A stretch of DNA of 64,000 bases from contig NC_045696.1 in the NCBI RefSeq assembly GCF_009834535.1, forward strand, positions 23,562,001 through 23,626,000, given 5' to 3'. Under the pieces are notes generated by a model. It ran no database searches. It was not told the DNA's origin and worked only from the letters and a program-made list of their open reading frames with translations. Below, piece by piece: positions 1 through 62,979 of the stretch. Each line of letters begins with the position of its first letter. Within the stretch, counting starts at the first letter, position 1. The stretch is from Camelus ferus (taxonomy: Eukaryota). A program made the position numbers and the translations under genes.

Positions 1-1210
1 TATCTTCCACATAAGACTTTATCCAGCCAAGCTCTGTGTTCATAATGGAAGGGCTTCGTTCACCTATTTGGCTGTTATATAAAATCTAACAACCTGGGAG
101 CACTCTGAGACTGCTCCTTTGGTCCACCTTCCTGTCTAAAGTAAGGGTCTGGAAGGGCCTTGAGAATATTCTCTGCCTATTTCCTGGTTACATCCTTCAA
201 CATTTTAAGAGAGTCAACGTGACAAACAAAGGGCTTTCTGTTAAAGCATAGGATCTGCTCTTTAATTAACTATTTAAAAAGGAGCAGTATTTCATATCTT
301 TCAGAAATATTTCATACTGTGACTTACTAATGAGTCACACTTACTATTATTACATTCACATTTAGAAGAATAAAGAGGACTGCTTCAAAGCAAATAAATC
401 CATTTGTTTCTAGAAATGTATTTAAAATCAATGATCTTCCAAAAGCAGCCTACAAGAGCCATGCTAGGCTCCTGCACAGAATTATCAGAAAAACTCTGGA
501 GACTTCAGATTCCTGGATGCCACCACAAACAAGATTGTCAGGAATGTGACAGGTAGAGGCTTTAGGAACCAATGTTAAACCTAAAATTCATCCAGGATAT
601 AGAGCTGTATCTGCACTACGTATTTTTAGTCTGCTTCCATAATGTAGTTATTTTGACTATACTTTTTAAATCGTGATACTCCCATATACTGAGGATTGCC
701 CCTAGGAACTCATGACTGCAATCTCCATAGGGAATGAAATCAAATCAGAAAACACAGAAGGGGTATCTATCATATGTAATTTATTATGCTAGATTTGGAG
801 ATTTAAATAAAAACATCACCCAGTTCCTGCTTTAAAGGAACTTGAGAGTGTTGAGGATAGTGTTCATTCTACCAGGTCTAACTTTTAGGAACCAGTTGTA
901 CATTCCTGGAGCATCAGCTGATTTTTGACTTGTAGACAGCAGAAAAGTTCCAGAGCCAATTCTGCATGCCACCTCTAAGAAAATCTATGAAATCTTTTGG
1001 AATGAATTTCATACCAGTATTAACCATTTTTTCTACTCTTACTTTTTGGTTTCAGTTTCTTTCTGTTTTTAAAAGCTGGGTATGCTATATACGTCATAAG
1101 GACATCTAGTGGTTTTTGAATAAGACAGAAGTAACACAAGTAAAACAAGAACTGTGGCAAAGCCTGTCTCTCCTTCAGAGAAACTTCTGTTCTATACATA
1201 CAGCCTAGAG

Positions 1211-1403
1211 CCATGCTGCTTAACCAGAGGTACACCTCAGAATTGTCTGCAGATCTATTTAAAAATATATATTCTGGACTCTTCCTCCACAGATTCTGAT
1301 CCCAGTAAGTCGTAGGTGGTCTTAGGTGGGGTGTCCTGTTTATACTCTGAAAAAAAGTCTTCCAGGTAATTCTGATATATACAGTAACAGTTAAGAACTA
1401 TTG
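1211..1403. mobile_element. MER5-like hAT-Charlie DNA transposon remnant
   Basis: Contains cagattctgat...cagtaagt, ccaggtaattctgat and gttaagaactattg, typical of MER5 as I recall it. Boundaries approximate. Confidence 0.55.
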
Positions 1404-4368
1404 GCTAATTTTTTAAACACAGTTTTCTTTTGGAGTAAGCAGGTTTATGAAGGTAGAGTGAGATGGACTAAAAATACTTTCCTATCATTTATTACTTAGT
1501 TTCAATAAGAAAATGAATGGTGCTGGAGAAGTAATGCCTATTGATTTCTTGGTCACGTGTTAAAGAAGATAAACACTCATTTAATTAATATTATATAAAT
1601 TAATTCTAATTTGGGGTATCACTCAGAAAAAATTAAATTTTAATGGTTTTTAGATTATAGCTCTACTGAGAAGATTTGCAAGGAGGGAAGAAAAAATTAC
1701 TCTGATGGATTTTATAAACAAGATTTCCTTACATTATGTCCACTAGTCACCCATATTAGTGCACATCTGAGAGATTTAAATACAGGTTTCACTTTGATAT
1801 TCTGAAAGCATTATGCCAAATTAAACAAATTACTTTGAAAAATGTGAAGAGACACTGGAAAATGATAGCATGGGCATCAAAGTAAAATTTCTCTACTAAT
1901 AATACGAAAGAATGGTTCTAATAAACATATTACAAAAGATTTCCTTATTTAATTGTGCTATGTTAAATTCCCCTGAAACAGAGGATGGATTTCTTAGTAT
2001 GGTATTTAAGACAATACAGTAATAGAAACCAATCTTTTAAACAATAATCTCACTCCTCAAATTTATAGACTTAGCACATTTTATTTCTACTAACTCAAAG
2101 TACGTATTTCTAGCAATTCTAGAGAGGACATAATGTTTCCTACTGAGGCAGTATTGCCATTGCTTTTTAAAACACCAGCCTAGAAGATAATTATAACAGT
2201 TAGATGTGGATTCACCTTTTCTGTCTCTTTATTTTTTAGTTATTCTGGCTTCTCTCAGAAATATACCTGCATTCGTCTTCAGGTTTGTTTTTTTAAACAC
2301 TAAAAAGAGAGGCATGCAATTGTATGACCAATGCCTACTACTGAGTTATTTTAAAACTTATAAAACAGCATATAAAGTGTATGACAGGAAGTACTGATCA
2401 AAGAAAAAAAGGCAGTGGGGCATACAGACGTGCTCTTTTCATACAGACAAATAAAAAGGATGGGGAAAAATTAGCTAGTCTTGTCAGATAGGAATATCAG
2501 TGGGAAATACACATCAATTTGACTTAGTAAAAATAAAATGTCTGTAAATTGAGTCTTGTGAGAAACAGAAAAGATGAAGAGAAGGAGACTGTAGAGAATT
2601 TAATATTTTAATGCTATAAAATATAAATGAGCCAAGAACGGAGCTTAACCAATGGATGAAGGATTCACCTTCCGCTGGGCGCTCAGGTGCCACTACCACT
2701 TTCACTAATTACGCAGCTAACTGCACAGCTCCGTCCTCCCACCAGCAAGAGGAGAACAGCTCCGTGCAAACTGGGTACTTCAAAGCTAAGAAAGAGTCAC
2801 ACAGTGGCTCCATCATGGGGCAGGTTCTGGGGAGCGGTTTGGGAGGGATACGTAAAGAATTCAAGGGGTGAAATCACCGGGAGATGGAACTGGCCCCAAA
2901 ATGAAAGGAACTGTAATATAGTTACTACACTGTGATTTGAACACAGAAACCTCCTGATATCTACTGAGCTATTTTATTCCCTACTAATGTATACGAAGTT
3001 ACTGTAATGTAACTGCACTGTTGTGAAACCACAGAGTTTCAGCTGTTCCACACGGTGGCCCTCTGATGTACAGGAAGAAACTACAGTCCTTGCAATAGTT
3101 GAGCTCACTAGAGACAACAATGGTGATATTAAGATATACTCAACTCCATTATGTATCAAAATGTGGGCATTTCTGTTGGTATAATACTATTATCTTGGTC
3201 TTTTAAAAATTCTGAACCAATGCCTCTTAGATCATCAGCTATCCAATTCTTATGAAAATAAGTCATAAGTCTGGGAAGATCTGTGAGTGCCTGCATCAAT
3301 CACCATACCACACTGTGGTATTATAAATCTCTCTCACTGAAAAGTAATTCCTTCAAAGTTCAGATGATAATGCTGAAACCTACCTAGGCAATGCTGCATG
3401 AGCACCTGTATGTCAAAACACCTAAAATGCTTCCTTAAGAAATAAAAACAAAACACACAGAACAGATTTTACAAAAAAGAGGTGATTCAAAAAGATCTAC
3501 TCAGTTATTAAAAAAAAAAAGACAAATGAGTTTAAGGAAAATATCTGTGTTTAATCTATCTCCTCTCATTTCCCCAGTGACTAAAAAGAAATAGAACCTT
3601 TTCTGCAATACAAAATATATCATTCTAAAATATATTCACAACTTGATGATGATGAAATTAATCTTTAAAAAATCAGAAGACATTCTATTTTCAATTTTGC
3701 TAGAACATATTTAATTTTTATAGTGTCCCAATATTTTATTGATTTCATCAGTTGATAACTATAGAATGATTTTTTAATGCTTATATTTTTATACATTTTT
3801 ATTCTTGTTTTAATGGGTCCATACACAATTTTACTTGGAATATGTTAAATATTTAGTTTCTGCTAGCTTTGTTTTTAACTTTAAGATTTCTAAAAAAAAA
3901 ATCAAATAAATTCTCTACATTAACAGTTTCAGTATTATATAAAATCTATATAGATATAACAATAGTATTACTTTGCTCAAATATGTAATTAATAGAGTTC
4001 ATTCTTCTGATAGCTTTAGTGAACTGATTTGAGCTACTTGATGGTTTCATAGCTTTTCCAAGCCTCTTGCCAAGAAAAGTCAAAGTAGTCAGGATAGGTA
4101 GAGGGAGCATGAGCAGAATCATCTCATTTAACCTAAGAAAGGTATATACGTATACAGTAATGTCTGACAAAGAGGTAAACTAAATTGTTGCCTTTTGTTA
4201 TCTCTGAGTAATAGAATTTCAGATGATTTTTTGCTGGTGTCTTTATACTTTAGAATAACTAAAGTTTTTTTTTTCCTTCCCCCAAGAGCATATATTATTT
4301 TTATAATAAACTATCAATTATAAACATGATATTGAAAATAAAATGCAATTTAATAAAAACGGACTAAC

Positions 4369-4569
4369 CTGTTGTCACAGAAGACTCTGACTCCCTCAAT
4401 TTCTGAGTTGCTAAAAGTTTTTCCTGCAAAGCTTTCTGGGCAACTTGTGCATCCCATTCTTCCAATTCTTTCTCAAATCGCAGGTTGTCCTCCTCAACAA
4501 AATCTCTTAAATCCGGTGGTAGTGTTTCTATTCCAACAAGGGACTGCCCAGTTTCTTTATTAAACTCCT
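4369..4569 (-). CDS. USP25: USP25 coding exon 17 equivalent, 201 nt
   Basis: ttgcag|AGGAGTTT...ACAACAG|gttagt. Translates (E)[66 protein letters not shown]; phase 1 to 1. Confidence 0.96.
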
Positions 4570-5184
4570 CTGCAAATCATATTTCAAAAACTATTATAAA
4601 ATTAAGGATTAAAGAAAAAACGCAAAACTCAAAACAGGAGGCATTTCAAATGTGATTTAAAACACAAATTGTTACCATTTAGCAAATCAATATTACCTAA
4701 AAATTAAAACTCAAATGTTCAGAAAAGCAATGATGCAAATATTTGATAATCCATTACAGGTAATGTTCTCAGCTTTTATTTTTAATCTGAAGAGTAAAAA
4801 ATGGAACAAGACATAAAGCCAGAATTGTTTGCTACTCAAACACTGACACAGTACTACTTTTTCTATTATAAAATACAAAATGTTTGATTATTCATTAAGT
4901 AAAGCTTATCACAAAATGAAAAGAAATAGCTCATAACCTATCAAGCTCAGAACAACTAAAATTCTTTTTCATCTGAAGCACTTAAGTATAGCAATATACT
5001 TGTAAGTAATTTGTAAACCAATCAATACAGCAAGATTTTTTAAAAGATCACATAAGTAGTATTTAAAAGGGTTACTCAACCTACACTACACACACAAAAT
5101 AAATTTTAGCCTTCAGTCATGAATGAACTGCCTACTTGGTTTTGCTGAATGGTTAAGTACAAAAGGAAAGTTGATTTTATCTGT

Positions 5185-5730
5185 TTCAACAAATCTTTAT
5201 TAAGTGTTTTTCGTATGCAAAGCCTATATTAGAATATGAGAAATAAAAAGATTAAGACATTGTATGACATGGCCCCTGGATTTGAGCAGATCAGAGTGAA
5301 GTGGGAAAGAAGTCAACATACAATCCCAACACACAGTAAGTGCCCAACAGAGGTATGCTGTGAGAACACAAGGAGGGATACTTTCTGGCAGGTCAAGGAA
5401 AACTTGGCAGAGCAGATGACACCTGAATTGAATCTTGACAGATGAGCAGGAATTACACAAAAGAAGAAAGAAATAAGATCATTACTGGGAAAAAATAAAA
5501 AACATAAGAACATACAGATATAACTGTGTGAAATGATTTGGTGTGAGCAGAATACAGCAAGAAGTTTAAATATCAGTAAAGTATATAAAGTGTGAGATGG
5601 ACAATGGTTACAAATGAAGCTGCAGAGACCATCAGGCCAGAAAATGGAGGCTAAGGAGCTTGAATATGAGTCAATGTAAGATGTAGTCATTAAAGGGATT
5701 TTTAACAAGGAGAAAAGAAATCAGATTTAC
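5185..5730 (-). mobile_element. L2 LINE 3' fragment
   Basis: Begins ttcaacaaatctttattaagtg (L2 3' terminus, reverse), followed by purine-rich L2 body (acctgaattgaatcttgacagatgagcaggaatt). Boundaries approximate. Confidence 0.65.
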
Positions 5731-5970: not shown

Positions 5971-6199
5971 CTTGCATTAAGAATTGTGGCTTATCATTTA
6001 TGTACATTAAACAGTATGCACTGGCATTTCTATAACCACCAAAAGAGTCCCTCACTAGCTCTTCCCATGATGATTTTGTTACAGCAATATCATTGTACTT
6101 CATCCACCTGTTTTCACGATGATCAAAAATGTATGCCCAGTAGTGCCCGGCATTAGCTTGGCCTTCATGAACTAAAACAGCATGTAAGCGATAAGGAAC
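5971..6199 (-). CDS. USP25: USP25 coding exon 16 equivalent, 229 nt, His box (catalytic His codon 6143-6145, Asn codon 6092-6094)
   Basis: atttag|GTTCCT...ATGCAAG|gtaaga. Translates [76 protein letters not shown]. Confidence 0.97.
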
Positions 6200-6499
6200 C
6201 TAAATATGAAAAGAGAAGAGTTAAAGTGCAGTTGAGTATTCTGTCTGTTACACCACAGTCCATGAAATCCACAAACCATCTGATGGGCAGATTCCATAGG
6301 AGCTTATTTTTTTCCACAAGAGTAAATTTGCTGGGATTAAATTTTTGAAAAAATTAAACTATGAAATAAAAAGTGGTGTGGAGGAAAATAAGCAAACTAA
6401 AGACATGTAAAATAGAAAGGTGTGTAAATAGGATCATTTCAAAATGCTGGAAATATAACTGCTGAGCTCTGTAAGTTATGTCTTTTGAATAAAGACCTT

Positions 6500-7130: not shown

Positions 7131-7201
7131 TTGGATCATAGATTTGTCAGAGTACATTAGTTCAATTGTACGATGAATTCTGGATATGCTTTCCTGCAAA
7201 T
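7131..7201 (-). CDS. USP25: USP25 coding exon 15 equivalent, 71 nt
   Basis: ccttag|ATTTGCAG...ATCCAA|gtaagt. Translates (D)[23 protein letters not shown]; phase 1 to 0. Confidence 0.96.
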
Positions 7202-8500: not shown

Positions 8501-10041
8501 AAGCTAACAGCAAATACAACAAGGATGAAAGTGAGGAAACAAATACTTCAAGGAAAATCTTACCTGATCCATAGTATCACAGGTCAACCTTATGGCATGA
8601 ATGTCTCTCCAGTTCCTCAAACTTAAAATGCCAAAAGTAGACTCATCATATTCCTACTTCCTCCCCCAAGGTAGGGGCCTGCCTACCCACTAGTTTCCCT
8701 TTTTTCAAAGTGCAGATAGAAATCCATTTAGTTATTCATACGAATTCATATTCACTATGAATAACTGAGGGAATCATCTCTGATCTGTCCCTCTCTCTCA
8801 CCTCTCGTCAACGACCCACGCGTGTCAGTTCCAAAGAATACACCAAATTCATTTCTTTCCTTCCTCAATGCCACTACCTTGGTGTCAAAGTTTCCTAACT
8901 TGCAGCCTTCTGAATGCAATCTTATAAAAACAAATACAATCTACCAAGTCCAGTAGAAAATTACCCAACACCTCACACAATATTCAGGAAAAGCCAAGTG
9001 CTTAATTAATGTTTACTAATGAATTCAAATGTAAAATATTCCCGTATATATGAAAAACACTAAAGGAAATCTTTACAGTTACTAATGCTAGTTGTTAGTC
9101 AACACCACACCCTATTTACTCTCTATTGAATTAGGACTGCTCTTTATTTACATACTGGCTGTAAAGAGCCACGTTGGGCATCTAAAATCTATCAATACTG
9201 TATATTTCTAGCTCTTTGGTATAAAACAGTTAACTCCTATACTTTCCTTCTTCATAGATCAATTAAATTAGGATAAAATTGGGGAGCAAAAATAGGGTAT
9301 TATATTTTGATATGCAAGAAAAATTATAATAAAACCTAGCATAAAATATTAACATCACTTCATTAAAAAGGGGCATTTTAATAACAGTAAAGTAGAAAGG
9401 AGATAATTTCAGAATAAAGGAGAGTTCCTCCCAAGAATGGGCAGATGGCAACTTCACACAAACACACACACACAAACACACACACAGCACTGTCTTTATC
9501 TTTCTTATTTTGCTACATGCCAGTTAAAACTCGTTACAGACTGGCACTGAGCTGATAGATCATATTTGGAAATCTCTGCTAAAGAAGACTGAAAACTAAA
9601 ATTCACATTTCTAATCCTTAAACCTAAAGAAAATGCTGTATCATTTGAACTCACTGTGCAAACATCAAGGGAAGTATATAAATGATAAGTACAAAATTTG
9701 ATGCTATATTATGTTTTACCAATGGAGTAGCTGTGAATACTGGTTTGATATAAATTTAGAGCGCTAAACTAGGAAATCAAATCATCTGTTATGTCATTAA
9801 TCATCTAAGTAATCCAGGGAGAATCTTTTGGTTTCTCTGAACCTAATATTAAGATCATATTATAATATAATATTACAATATTATCTTATAGAAAACATTT
9901 TCTAGGGGATAAAAAACTCTTTATAATATTTACATATGAAACCCATAATCCACAGGATCCACAGGTGATTTCCCTTCTCAATTTTAACATTAATCATATC
10001 CATCTGGGGCCAGAGTAGCTATGCTATGAGAAGCTTCTTAC

Positions 10042-10269
10042 CTCTGGTGTCATTTTCTATTTCTGTCCTCCAGCGATGTAAACAGCTTTCTAGCACAGAG
10101 AGTTCTTCTTCTGTTATGTGCCTTGGTGCTGGATGCATGGGCAAATCTGGAGGTATCCGAGACTGAGTGAACTGGCTTGTGTACTACTGATCTCGATGAA
10201 ACGGCGGTTACTGATGCAGGCGATGTGCTTGGCAGTTCTGAAGGAGGAGCTCCCTGTTGGTCTGTTGTG
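10042..10269 (-). CDS. USP25: USP25 coding exon 14 equivalent, 228 nt as assembled, with a +1 frameshift at 10172/10173
   Basis: acacag|CACAACA...ACCAGAG|gtaaga. The 5' part reads [32 protein letters not shown]. The conserved continuation [43 protein letters not shown] resumes only after one base is skipped. Flanking phases (2 in, 1 out) require 3n+2 nt (227), but 228 nt are present. Confidence 0.93.
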
Positions 10270-10864
10270 CTGTGTTTTTAAAGCACACATTATTACTAAA
10301 CTTTCCAAATTCAAACTCTGGACAAAGATTATACCAAACACACAGCATTAAATTGGCTTATAATTTCAAAAGAAAAAGGTCTTCTTAAAAAAAGATAAAA
10401 ATATGTGGATTAATCTAATATTCTATTAAGATTCTTAATATATGGAACTATATTATAGGGATAAAACTGGGGCTTTACAGTACAAATGGCTTAATCATAT
10501 TTACTTAAATCTTATGTATTCTGGAATTATAAAACCTTCCCTTGCTAATACTTACTAACTCACAGTATAGAAAAAAATTCTAGTTTAGCAGTAGTATTTT
10601 CATGGATAAAAGGTTGATATATAAAACATACCAAAACAACATAAAGTATAATTTTGAACAACAAAAATGTAATGAAAATTCCGATCCACAATAAAAGAAG
10701 AGAGCACGAAGAAGACACAGACTCTTCTAAGTAAATCTAATCTTTTTAGAGTTCACTCAAATGAGTCACAACACGCAATTTATAAAACCGTCTTTAAAGG
10801 CATCAATTACATTATTACATAATATAGCAACGTAGCTGTCTCTTCCATCAAGAAAACGTTTTAC

Positions 10865-11026
10865 CTTGGCAATGTCTGTGATGGTACAGAACCACTAGAT
10901 GGGGAACTAGCATCAAGATCATCAACAGGGGAAGTGCAAACAGGTTTACTGGAGGCAAATTCCAACGCGTACTGTAGAACATCTACCAAGGGGAATCGTT
11001 TGGGACCCGAGCCATAGCTTAAATAT
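10865..11026 (-). CDS. USP25: USP25 coding exon 13 equivalent, 162 nt
   Basis: taacag|ATATTTA...CCAAG|gtaaaa. Translates [53 protein letters not shown](S); phase 2 to 2. Confidence 0.96.
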
Positions 11027-11253
11027 CTGTTAACCATAAAATAGATAAATGTTTCATTTGTTTATAAAGCACATTTATTTTTTTCCCAACAACTGTCATA
11101 AAACATGATAAAAACATTTCAATAAACCTTCAACAATGAGATGAGTTTTGCTTTCAAATGAAGATGGTAAAACTAAATATATATTCAAGAAAAAAATGTT
11201 CTCCAAAGGAGCGAAGTCAAAGCTGATTAAGACTGAAAAAAAAAAAAGACTCG

Positions 11254-11254
<1 letters not shown>

Positions 11255-11296
<42 letters not shown>

Positions 11297-11331
11297 TATA
11301 TACACACACACACACATATATATATACACAC
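11255..11331. repeat. Compound microsatellite (TG)16-(TA)n-(CA)7-(TA)5
   Basis: Read directly from the sequence. Confidence 0.95.
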
Positions 11332-15920: not shown

Positions 15921-18121
15921 TAAAATTTATGATTTAGAAAGATATTTTGTAAGTAATTATCTTACTTAGAATCATTTTGAATTTATTCAGTTGTCTTGAT
16001 GCATCATTACAGAAATGAAAACTTAATAGCTCAGTGGATGTTTTAACACAAGCAATTCTGGAGACTAAAGATCTTTACGTTAGTTTGCTCAGCTATTTTA
16101 GCAAATGAGACATTTTCTGTATCAAAGTAAGATCAACAGTTTTTACTAAATAATAGTGTAAGAGATAAAAGGCATTAACATCAAGGATTATGCCAATTTA
16201 GAAAAAAGCCTAAAATGTTGTTCACTCATCTTTATTGAGAAATAAAATAATTATTCTGAAGGACATAATGAAATAAGAACATAATTTATGTATGCTATTA
16301 AAAATTTTTAATATATTCTACTCTAGTCAGGGATAGTCACTTAAACCAGGTTGCATGATTACTGAAACTACTGTGTCCAGCAAATCTAGGCAACTGGTAA
16401 CAGGAATCACAGGTAATCAAACTGCTATTATTGAGACTGCTTGGAAACTGCTGAATTCAGAGACAATGACAAACCACTGGATACTTTAGGTTAGATGGGA
16501 AAACCTAGGCAGAAAATATATACTGCAGCATGAGGCATTCAGAGTATGAAGCCAAAGGCAGAAGACAAACTTGATTTTTAAAAAATGACATTAAGAGTTA
16601 ATGTAAAAAAAATATTTTAAAAGCTGGGAATATGTGAGAAAGATTCTTAATTAATTAATTACCAATAATCCATAGTGCATTTCATTTGAGCTACTTTAAC
16701 AATGTAAGGAAAATGCCATCCTTCTTTTGCTGCCCAAACCCATCATCCTTCTACTTAATAGGAAACAGATCACACTTTATGGGGGGGGTCTGCTTTCTTG
16801 TTCCACTTAGGATCTTTGGAAAGTCCCAACCCTTACAGATCTGTTTTTCAATCAATAAAATATAGAAGTTTAATTTAAATATTCTTAATTAGAGATCTGT
16901 GTCAGAGTCACTTGTGGAGTTCTCGTGCCCATGTACCATATCCCTACCATAAATTCCAATGTGATAACTTTGAAGGGGGACCTAGGCATCTGTTGAGAAT
17001 CACTGAAGTAGATAATCAATGATGTATAGAGAAAAGCAATTTCAAATATTTTTTCTTTCTCTCTCTCTCTCCCTTAAAGAGAAGGCCAAAAATAGCAAAT
17101 ATTATTTATTTCTGTTTTGGTATGTGAAGGAAAAGAAAATGAGGATGGAGTTAGAATTACATCTTTTATAAAAAGTACACAATTCAGATAAAAGCAATTC
17201 ATTCTCAAAGATACAAGAACTCAGTCCCTTTTTAGATAGAAAGAGATATCATCACTTAATATTTATTAAGCAACAACTCAGAGATAAAAACCTCTGAAAC
17301 TTTCTTTTAATAGCACTGAGACATTTTGCTCAGTGAATATGCAGTACGTAATTCTATTCAGAGTCACCACACTATCCTAGGGGCATAGTGACTGACACAG
17401 ACGACGATCCCCACCCTCATGCACACAGCTTACATCTAGAGAGCTATCACCAATTGCTTAATGAAGACTGGTTTTGGAACACATGATCTGTCCTTTACTT
17501 TCTGTCACTCTGAATGAATACAAGAATGGAAGGATACACAGATGGAGCTAAAGAGATGAACGGAGAGACGAAGATGGGTGGCAAGGCAGAGAGACCAGTA
17601 AAGACAAACAGATTTGTAATACATTTAATATATTTTTTTCTTGAGGAAGCAAGTTCTTCCATATGCCCTTCATGCAAGTACATAGTATTTTTATGAGAAA
17701 AGGAATCTGGTGTTGCCTATTTAGGCCTGGATGTATTCCAACAATATCTGATATAAGAAATACACGTTTATATAAAATTCCACTCTAATATCCGTATTTT
17801 CCTTCCTTACTTCCAGGACTGGAATACCGTAATGGCCAGTGCCTTGACTAAAAAGTCTAAGAAGACTGAACAATGTTCTAAAGGAGGATTTTAACAGAAA
17901 AATTTGAGAAAAACTATTTAAATGAGAATTTAACACAGATTATAGACTATATTGACTGTGTAGGTTTCCCAAATATGTCTAAATTACCATAACTAAATCC
18001 AAACACATTTTCTGAGTATTCTCTTAATTATTAGGTACCTATATATATATAAGTAGAGCCTTAAATTACGCTTTGCAACAATACTTGCAGGAAAGAGGAA
18101 TAAAGAACATGTTAAACTCAC

Positions 18122-18270
18122 CTCTTGGCCAGATTTTCCTGAATTTTCTGAATGTAAAGACTCAATTTCTCCTTCAATCATAGCAGCTTCTAGGCACTCA
18201 TGTAGATCTTTGAATCCATTGACCTGAAGTGGGTACTGACCAAACATTTCAGTATTTTCAAATTTTTTAC
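18122..18270 (-). CDS. USP25: USP25 coding exon 10 equivalent, 149 nt
   Basis: taacag|GTAAAAAA...CAAGAG|gtgagt. Translates [49 protein letters not shown]; partly seen in ORF 17993..18247. Confidence 0.96.
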
Positions 18271-27974: not shown

Positions 27975-28970
27975 CTGTGGGGGAGAAAAAAAGGGTTGAT
28001 TATGTTTGAGCCTATCAATAAAAATAATAAATACTGCAAAATAAAACTTATGGCTAGTCATTTCAAATGCATAATTAACTGATTCCTCACAAAGGTATCA
28101 TATGAAATATTTCACATCAAATACAAGAAATACTTGTAACTTCACCAGAGTATAACATCAGTATTTGAGAAAAGCGTTATATTGACAATCATGTAATTTC
28201 TCTTAAGGGGGAAATATATATAAAGTCAAACTTACTAATAAGATTTATAAAAAAAAATAACTATCCCCCAAAAGAGCTCTGTAATGAATCTGTATAAAAT
28301 GAAGGACCCATATTACCAAAGAGTTCTTCATTATATAAAGATTTATTACTGGCTTCTTTCTTGGAGGGCATACATGCTTTTCAACAATTAATTTTCTCAA
28401 TTTAACTTTTACACACAACTTTTTAAGCCATATCCAATTCTACCAAGATATCTGTTAACATGGATAGACTGAGTCCAGTCAATTACTGACTTCCTGACTA
28501 TCCAGTCCACCACCTCATGAACGTCACATTGATGCCTCGTTCAGAACCAGCACATACTTTACCTTTGCCATCCCTTCCTTTGGTCCTAGCTCACCTGATG
28601 CAGATAAACAGGAATAGGCAATGACAGTTGTTCTACCATAAAATTCTTTTTATAATCTAAACTGGAACACAGAAAATAGGTTTACACGGAATCTGTGGCC
28701 CAGGACAGGAGACGGATAAATCAATCTTGCTAAGACTGCCTAAAGACAGACAAATAAGTGTAAGCAATTTGCCTTTATTAAAATAGCCCTGAGTATAAAA
28801 TAAACTTATTATCATATATTTTTCCAGCTAGACATTTTTTGACAAGTATCTGGGCCAACATTTTCACCTTTAAAATGCTGAAACTAAGGTCTAGGAAGCT
28901 TAAGCAAATTGCTCCAAAGCCATACAGCTAAAGACAACTAAATTTAACACAAAGAGCCAGTTATAAACAT

Positions 28971-40417: not shown

Positions 40418-40580
40418 CTGAATAACAGCACTAAACCAGCAAGTATTGCCAACATTCTTTAGTCCAACAGGAGCTCTGTCCTGCCTTTTTCTATCATAAG
40501 GGTTTCGAGAATCCCTCCAAACTTCAGTAGGTGTCCTCTTCAAACATGCTTTATTTTCTGCTATGCTGGCTTCAAGAACC
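40418..40580 (-). CDS. USP25: USP25 coding exon 5 equivalent, 163 nt, Cys box with the catalytic Cys codon TGC at 40439-40441
   Basis: cttaag|GGTTCTT...ATTCAG|gtaagg. Translates [54 protein letters not shown], containing the USP-family GLxNxGNTC motif. Confidence 0.97.
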
Positions 40581-43500
40581 CTTAAGCAATGGGGAGAAAA
40601 TGATGGGGAAAAAATACAGTATTAATTTAGTCTATATTCTAGGAAATAGCATACTATAAACTAAGGATTTTAATTAATTAAGCTCTGGATAATATATTTG
40701 GGGAAGTAATATTTAATGCTAAATTTACTCAAGTGGAAGTTACTTTTCTTTAAGAACACAGCAGTGGCAATGCCAACAAATCAAGAGATATGCAGCCTTT
40801 TATTCTCAGAAAAAGGCAATTTCAAACACATAAAGACAGTATTACATATTAAAAATGTTAAATTATGTTTCAACAAATTAGAGGAGAGGTTTAGTGCCAG
40901 GACTATAGCACCTAGGTAAGTTTCGCTGTATTAAATACATATTTACAATACAATGACTAGTTTTTATAACACTTACTTTGAATCATCAAGAAAACATTAA
41001 AAAACTGAAAAAACTGCACTTTTACTTCTCTAACCATTAATTTCCTTTTCTATAAAAAAGGATTAAGTTAATCTATGGTTCCTTTTAGTTCTAGAGATCT
41101 GTAATTCTATGACAGCTGAATGAAGAGAATATTTCTATGTTCACTTCTTTATCCAAAAGTCTGCCTAGGGAAAAGCCTAGCTAAATAAATATCTACATAT
41201 AAGAATAATAAAAGATTAACCTCTTAAAAATCAACTCACCTACAGAATATCTGAAAATACATCAACTAACACGGCAAGAGTGTGCTACTTTGCTTAGTGG
41301 TATTTTTCTTAATTTTAAGCATGTAACAACATGCTGGAAAAGCCTGATTCCCACAGATAGACTAACCATGCATTTTGCCTGCTCAAGATATGTGTTACTT
41401 ACTATTCTAAATAAGCATAAATAATAGCCAGGTTATCTCACTCCGTTTTGTGTTCATTATAAAAACCTGAGCAAAAGTGAGTCTTTTAACTTCTTGGCTT
41501 TTTGAGAAAACTGCATTTGTGCTACACCATCTTTATGCTAAAGATTTTGCTCTATCACATTAATATGAAAATAACATAGCTATCTTCCTTAATCATGAGG
41601 GAAAAGTAAATTATTCTTTCATCCCTAACTTTATAACATGAGATTAGATTCAATGCATTAGATTCCAAACTATTACTTAAAATAACTTATGTGAATATAA
41701 GATAAAGTCTTTCTTTGGGAATCAGTAAAACCACATGCTGAAAAAGAAAACAGGAAACGTGATACATTAAAATGTAAATATCAAAGTAAACTCACATGTA
41801 AAAATAAACAGTTTACACCTCTGTCATTTTAAGGAGTAATCCAACATCAGCAGCAGCACTCTTTGCCCAAATACCAATTTCACACATGCAACCTGAACCT
41901 CTGGCGGCTTTTTCTCTTACATCACTTACCACAAAAGATACCAGAACTCCTTGGAAGGTATCTAGATGAGTTGGGGCATAAAAAAATCAGCATTCACCTA
42001 GAACATCCCACTGTTACCAGAAACAAATTTTTAAGAACATAAAAGGGAGATAAGGCAACTTGAGAGACTTCCTACTGTTCAAGTTGTACAGAGTTCAGCA
42101 ATAATATAATAACAATAACAACAACAACAACAACAATAAACTGGGAGAAATTAAATTTGTACAAGGTGATACTTCAAAAGAGAAAAGTTAACACATAGTA
42201 TACAAAAGGTAACTATAACAAAAGGTAAATATAACACCAAAATCTGTTTTCTATAAAAAGGTATCTATTTATTGACTTTATAAATGGGAGTGTTTTCATT
42301 TGAAAAGTTTGTTCCTTTTGTAACATATGTGTATTAAGGGGTATAAATAAAGGAACCTTATTTCTACATTGGTAATCAGAAGTGAATGAACTAAAACAAG
42401 CAATGAGTTCTGGGAAAAGCAGCAACAATACCCTTAACAAGAAAGAAGAACTAGCATCAGTGGTCATGTGTAAGAGATAGAAGAGGCACCCAGCAATTGA
42501 CTAGCATTGTTGGGCATGTACAATAACCATTGAAAAAGAGGATTCTACAGTATATTCCAAAAGTATAAACTGGTCAAAAGTCAAGGAGAACTACACTCAA
42601 TCCTAAATCTCCTAGGTGGATGATCCTCTAGTATTATGTATTTTTAAGCTAATCATAATAAAATACTAATAAGAAATGAACCCTTCTTAATGTTAACACA
42701 TCAGATCACATATATCATGACCAGGCAATGGGGCACACAGACATTAGTTATGGAAAACTTAGGAATACCTGATTTCTACAAAATACACCCAGTCTGCAAA
42801 ATTTAAAATCTGTTTATGTCACATAAAGTTAATAACAAAATGAGACTCAGCCTCAAGACCACATTGAGTAAAACTAGGTCTCATGTTCCCCAAAAGTGTT
42901 AACAACCTACCCCAAATCTATGATATAGACAGCCCTGAAATGATATATATTCTTCTTATCCTAGATCTAGTTAAGATTATAAAAACCAGAAGTATTTTTC
43001 TAATGTTTCAATATAGGAAATTCTAACATCCTTCTCTTCAGATCCCTCCCACCAAGAAAGCATACCTCTTGATTTTTATGTTGTATGGAAACATTACATT
43101 AAATGTGCTGAAATAACATAAGCGTTTTAGTTCCCTTCTCTACTCTTGGGAGAACGGATGGCCTCAAATGTACCTCTAGGACCAAGCAGCTTCCCTGCAG
43201 TTTGTTATACTATTCCACAAAGGAAACTGGGAGGTAAAGAAAGTCAAGGATATAAACTAAAGACACCATCTCCCCAATACTCCTATACACCTTTCCTTAT
43301 AGAGGTAAGATTAGGTACAAATTGTTAATAACTGAGTAGGGCTCAAGACATACATACATGCTCAATGCTCCTCAAAGTGACCTAAGATAGAAAATTTTTG
43401 AAAAGTAGCCACTTCCTAAATCCTATTTATTCTTGGCATGTGTATATACATAATTAAATGTATAAAATTAAATATGCACATAACAATTCAGTCATATGGT

Positions 43501-62148: not shown

Positions 62149-62979
62149 CTTCAAATATCAAGAACAAAACATCAAATATTTTGGAATAACTCTATACATT
62201 CTCACATGACTTACGTAATTTTCTCTATAACAATGAATATTTCATAGGAAAAATCATTTTCAGATTTAAAATTATTCTGTGATTCCTAGTTTGTTTAAAT
62301 TCACTGTTAACAAAGTATACTATATCAATAACAATTCCTTTTTCTACTAATTAAAACTACTAACATAATGTAAAAATCAATTCTATGACTAATTTCTTAG
62401 GTTTCCATTACTTTTATATCTGCTTAACAATAGTCTAATCATAAACTTGGACTTCTAAACAAGTGAACAAACTAGAGTTTTCTGGAACTTGCCATATAAT
62501 AGAGTGAACACTGAATATTTAAAACAGTGCTTCAGCAAACAGGGATAATAAAGGATGCTCCCTTTAATATGGATGCTGATTGCCTACCTAGAGGCAAACT
62601 AACAAGCAAATATGAAAGACTCATAAGAAAACAGCAAAATAATCTCAAGCTTGATAGAACTAGAAATACTCAACACTGTCAAGATGACAATCCCACCCAA
62701 ATTAAATATATAAATTGTGTACTAGTTCTCATCAAAATATACCTAGACAAAATTATTCTAAAGTTAATAGAAGAAAGCAAATGCCAAAAAACTAGGAGTT
62801 TTTGAAACAGCAAAATAATGAAAAGAGACCTGCCCAGTTATTTCTATGTTCTCTGTACAGTTAACGATAAATATAACACTTGCTCTATGACCGCGAATTG
62901 AAACAGCATTAGGAAATCCAAGTATTAATAATAAAGAATCTTAGTAACAGAAGGCCGAACCCGTAACACTGTGTAGGCC

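Follow-up and report, generated by a model that had tools for sequence, protein, structure and literature searches.

A surplus base within the autoinhibitory motif of USP25 in a Camelus ferus assembly is probably a consensus error

The window, i.e. the whole stretch of 64,000 nucleotides of Camelus ferus DNA that was analysed, contains 15 exons of USP25 (exons 2–16) running from position 62154 to position 4367, one of which, the exon at 10269–10042, is interrupted by a single surplus base that parts two neighboring codons of the autoinhibitory motif. Judged from the assembled sequence, this base (10172/10173) was most probably inserted into the assembly consensus by error, with a probability of roughly 0.9. 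The true exon would then be 227 nt in length with HKPFTQ continuous as in alpaca (Vicugna pacos), and the animal would make normal USP25. The relevant features are as follows, with positions given within the window.

40418..40582, minus strand: exon with the Cys box (NTCWFSA, Cys178), intact and in frame; located by tblastn, boundaries approximate
10865..11026, minus strand: upstream USP25 exon, 162 nt, with the 3′ end CCA AG/gt, leaving two codon bases
10042..10269, minus strand: USP25 exon with the frame break, 228 nt as assembled; coding exon 13 when numbered on the human protein
10176..10177, minus strand: internal AG; used as an acceptor it gives an exon start at 10175, an exon of 134 nt and an open in-frame product without 32 residues
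10172..10173, minus strand: surplus base between the CCA (Pro521) and TTC (Phe522) codons, where alpaca has HKPFTQ
10050..10052, minus strand: TGA stop that ends the shifted frame, 40 foreign codons past the break
7131..7201, minus strand: downstream USP25 exon, 71 nt, with the 5′ end ag/AT TTG, needing one base from the preceding exon
about 5972..6199 (upper end also placed at 6205), minus strand: exon with the His box (GHYWAY, His607; KYNDIAV, Asn624), intact and in frame; located by tblastn, boundaries approximate

On the minus strand the broken exon lies between an AG at 10271–10270 and a GT at 10041–10040, and at the site of the break it reads CCA (10175–10173), G (10172) and TTC (10171–10169). 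Translation from 10268 gives 32 USP25 residues followed by 40 foreign ones (VHSVSD...EDRNRK) and the TGA at 10052–10050, and translation from 10171 gives 43 residues, all 43 of them identical to human USP25 (PDB 6hel, 6h4j and 5o71; E = 1.5e-24). The same 43-residue stretch matches USP28 at E = 5.5e-09, so the exon is closer to USP25 than to this paralogue, and the gene assignment made in the original prediction holds. The upstream exon ends with CCA AG/gt and the downstream exon begins with ag/AT TTG, so the exon between them must be of length 3n+2 (227 nt), yet its 228 nt are 3n. In the assembled sequence the core of the autoinhibitory motif, IHKPFTQ, is interrupted; HKP is read in one frame and FTQ in another, and the two are joined only if one base is disregarded. 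All of the coordinates originally given for the frameshift (the 228-nt exon, the base at 10172/10173, the 40 codons and the TGA) are reproduced. The exon is single-copy in the assembly (2.09 Gb in 2043 pieces), and CA/TG dinucleotide microsatellites are located in the introns flanking the exon pair at about 9400–9500 and 11200–11330 of the window.

The exons of the window were mapped by tblastn with bat and human USP25 as queries. Neither frame breaks nor stops relative to alpaca are present in the 14 other exons of the window or in nine further exons downstream on the same contig (C1), among them the two alternative exons of muscle type that an alpaca isoform contains; exon 1 is outside the window. 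There is thus a single lesion across the 24 exons examined, and because the other exons are intact, old decay of the gene is excluded, as had been argued earlier from the 14 exons of the window. A unitary pseudogene, reflecting an old gene loss, is likewise ruled out by the one lesion in 24 exons and by residues near-identical to those of alpaca. The Phe codon that follows the break corresponds to residue 522 in human isoform X8, and His607 and Asn624 are placed by offset from human numbering; on this map the His box is two exons downstream of the break and many exon junctions are situated 3′ of the stop, in agreement with the order first proposed. The paralogue USP28 itself is located at C33:15254788–15284625, where its exons matched the alpaca USP25 query at 43–79% identity.

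The closest named relative, alpaca, has no break at this position. The alpaca proteins XP_072823934.1 and XP_031531053.1 both contain an unbroken HKPFTQ with residues on both sides identical to those of the window, and the sole residue difference from alpaca seen within exons is GQSLVG against GQALVG in a later exon. Of 265 compared proteins that contain FTQSR, 263 have HKPFTQ and two have YKPFTQ. When the exon as assembled was compared with a collection of 5.8 billion proteins, there were eight matches, all restricted to the first 44% of the query and none with the shifted tail, the best two of which are alpaca USP25 predictions that are 100% identical over the matched half. No protein longer than 133 residues with the shifted tail was found in this collection, and a pattern scan of metagenomes that allowed one or two free bases at the site returned no stretches. 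In two large USP25 clusters, the 30 members listed include no camelid. A literature search for USP25 with camel found no report of USP25 loss in camelids, and the one camelid paper among the matches listed mentions only a missense variant in alpaca.

Two other segments of the alpaca predictions map to introns of the window. The extra exon of alpaca isoform X5 corresponds to window positions 28563–28790 (minus strand), where there are two stops and several changes, and it is unlikely to be a genuine coding exon. The protein XP_031531053.1 also runs past a donor into intron sequence (window about 18002–18125, minus strand), which appears to be a mistake in the annotation of that protein.

Equivalent breaks are present elsewhere in the same assembly. 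A control set of long conserved coding exons totaling about 173 kb contains eight single-base frame breaks, a rate of one per ~22 kb (Poisson 95% range, one per 11–50 kb), and about 0.15 breaks would be expected by error alone in the 3.3-kb USP25 coding sequence. Eight of the nine breaks, that in USP25 included, are net +1. The large exons of APC (2219 aa), APC2 (1659 aa), RAG1 (1056 aa) and MKI67 (1828 aa) and BRCA1 exon 11 (1214 aa) are open.

Four of the control breaks are in protocadherin-type exons (Pfam PF08266), 51 of 55 of which have open frames of 788 aa or more, with the other four (C3:98332200–98721500) being short at 320, 693, 422 and 399 aa. Each of the short exons is broken once, by net +1, with the frame open before and after, and beyond the break resumes in another frame that is strongly similar to an intact neighbor. 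When three of the four are aligned to a paralogue, the only gap is one base long and lies on the side of the paralogue; in the fourth the frames switch at or beside a run of A. These four breaks could alternatively be those of real young pseudogenes. Without the protocadherins the count falls to four breaks, confined to two genes in 32 kb, so the errors may be unevenly distributed, in patches that need not include the USP25 exon.

The first of these two genes is BRCA2, in which exon 11 (C14:17331500–17338500, minus strand; locus 572–5630) is divided among four open reading frames of 399, 657, 201 and 474 aa that alternate between frames 2, 3, 2 and 3; three of them (657, 201 and 474 aa) contain BRC repeats. 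Because the open reading frames abut or overlap by 2–83 bases, an intron cannot explain the changes of frame, and the exon therefore contains three single-base breaks in about 5 kb. Loss of BRCA2 is lethal. Three real frameshifts in this exon are implausible in one animal, so at least these breaks are to be regarded as errors, and almost certainly as errors of assembly. The second gene encodes desmoplakin, the last exon of which (C20:5042000–5047500) shifts from frame 2 to frame 3 with a net +1 break at locus 3429–3499; within this one exon, frame 2 encodes the plakin-repeat domains A and B (PDB 5dzz and 1lm7) and frame 3 encodes domain C (1lm5). The desmoplakin break, like that of USP25, is outside any run of one base. 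A GC-rich plectin-repeat array (epiplakin-like; C25:858500–877000) is also split, with open reading frames of 2065, 881, 1079 and 1221 aa, which could reflect either additional breaks of frame or a tandem repeat that was assembled wrongly.

In form the USP25 break matches the BRCA2 errors, and a consensus error is favored. From the assembly as a whole we infer that the USP25 break is probably one of its errors, and the preference for an artefact expressed in the original prediction is strongly backed by the equivalent breaks in BRCA2, desmoplakin and four of the 55 protocadherin exons. The principal alternative is a real and recent one-base insertion, constituting a private or segregating USP25 null allele in the sequenced animal. 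The extra base is present in the assembly and its site is outside any run of one base, both of which are compatible with a real insertion. However, the gene is otherwise intact and very strongly constrained, alpaca does not have the extra base, and a protein with the shifted tail is not on record among the 5.8 billion searched. Moreover, a break rate of about one per 22 kb of coding exon, extending even to BRCA2, greatly exceeds the rate at which real nulls could plausibly occur in one constrained gene. A real null allele is accordingly unlikely.

If the frameshift were nonetheless real, the product would be without His607 and Asn624. It is an established rule of nonsense-mediated decay (NMD) that a stop upstream of exon junctions marks an mRNA for decay, and as the stop at 10052–10050 is upstream of many exon junctions, the mRNA would be a predicted NMD target, with any protein that is made lacking the His box. 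USP25 is a regulator of TRAF3/TRAF6 and IL-17 signaling. The break also affects the published autoinhibitory motif (AIM, or IL-loop), which keeps USP25 in an inactive tetramer and has Pro521 and Phe522 as its buried core (Gersch et al. 2019, PMC6509359; Liu et al. 2018, PMC6255862). As first noted, the break is at this motif, and it falls exactly between these two residues. Mutations of P521 disrupt the tetramer, and the point mutants P521S and F522G/E/A/L activate the enzyme, according to the same papers (PMC6509359, PMC6255862).

These properties of Pro521 bear on a second alternative, in which the insertion is real but is bypassed by splicing to the AG at 10177–10176, yielding an in-frame mRNA without 32 residues, Pro521 included, and a USP25 unable to form the autoinhibited tetramer. 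Every AG and GT able to restore phase was enumerated for the exon. Skipping of the exon is out of frame, as originally stated, although the accompanying account of internal acceptors is incomplete, since the AG at 10177–10176 had been overlooked. Open products result only from internal acceptors giving exon starts at 10175, 10121, 10085 and 10067 and from a donor at 10097, none of which has a convincing splice-site context. The product via 10177–10176 (...DKSMIQ) is open and in frame, and the reported effect of P521 mutations on the tetramer accords with the predicted consequence, but purines predominate in the 25 bases preceding this AG, with no pyrimidine tract, the normal acceptor at 10271–10270 is intact, and the bypass also requires the insertion to be real. 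Such a bypass is highly improbable. Taken together, a young loss-of-function allele of either kind, whether an NMD-targeted null or, via 10177–10176, a form without Pro521 that could not autoinhibit, is an improbable description of this animal.

Least probable is recoding, by which a programmed +1 ribosomal frameshift or an RNA-level correction would restore the frame at CCA-G-TTC; it has nothing in its favor beyond the frame break itself, is needed by none of the 265 relatives compared (the frame break not being conserved in orthologues), has no stop or rare codon context at the site, and is less simple than the explanation provided by the assembly control. Rescue by either a cryptic acceptor or recoding is thus very unlikely.

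The preferred reading, an error of the consensus, can be compared with the word content of sequencing runs. Fourteen DNA runs contain 0.95–0.97 of 138 words sampled around the exon, and six RNA runs were also found. The fraction is 0.97 for three runs that were flagged as possible sources, with about four words absent at positions that cannot be located, and one discrepant site in 1301 bases is expected to remove about 3.4 sampled words. The agreement between the roughly four absent words in the possible source runs and the 3.4 expected gives weak support for an error.

The origin of the extra base was previously attributed, as the most economical explanation, to a heterozygous A/G SNP of which both bases were written into the consensus. 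The adjacent bases form a transition pair in USP25 (A and G) and in desmoplakin (C and T) and not in the other breaks, such that this cause may fit USP25 and, by analogy, desmoplakin, and does not fit the rest. Nor is an A/G SNP needed as a cause, since the remaining breaks resemble generic indel errors of a single base, some of them in short runs of one base. Raw long-read errors are biased towards insertions, and consensus errors are commonest in runs of one base.

Recognition of the surplus base as a probable error guards against a false claim of USP25 loss in a camelid. It also calibrates the whole genome; with frame breaks at about one per 22 kb in long conserved exons, even in BRCA2, frameshifts elsewhere in this assembly are to be treated as probable consensus errors until reads show otherwise.

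Three known systems provide points of comparison. The alpaca gene (XP_072823934.1 and XP_031531053.1) has identical residues across the exon at 10269–10042 and nearly all others, and differs in having no frame break, in the one residue of a later exon, and in the probable intronic pseudo-exon, where several residues and two stops set the window apart; the window is therefore from a camelid close to alpaca but distinct from it. The human USP25 AIM is the same motif as that encoded by the window, with HKP before the break and 43 of 43 identical residues after it, whereas one base parts the Pro and Phe codons as assembled here and the human studies are of point mutants rather than truncations. 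Single-base indel errors that create false frameshifts in long-read assemblies are described in PMC12007338, and the putative USP25 error, deduced here from the assembly, resembles the residual indel errors of draft vertebrate assemblies: it is an isolated one-base break in a gene that is otherwise conserved, with many equivalents in the same assembly, most of which are net +1.
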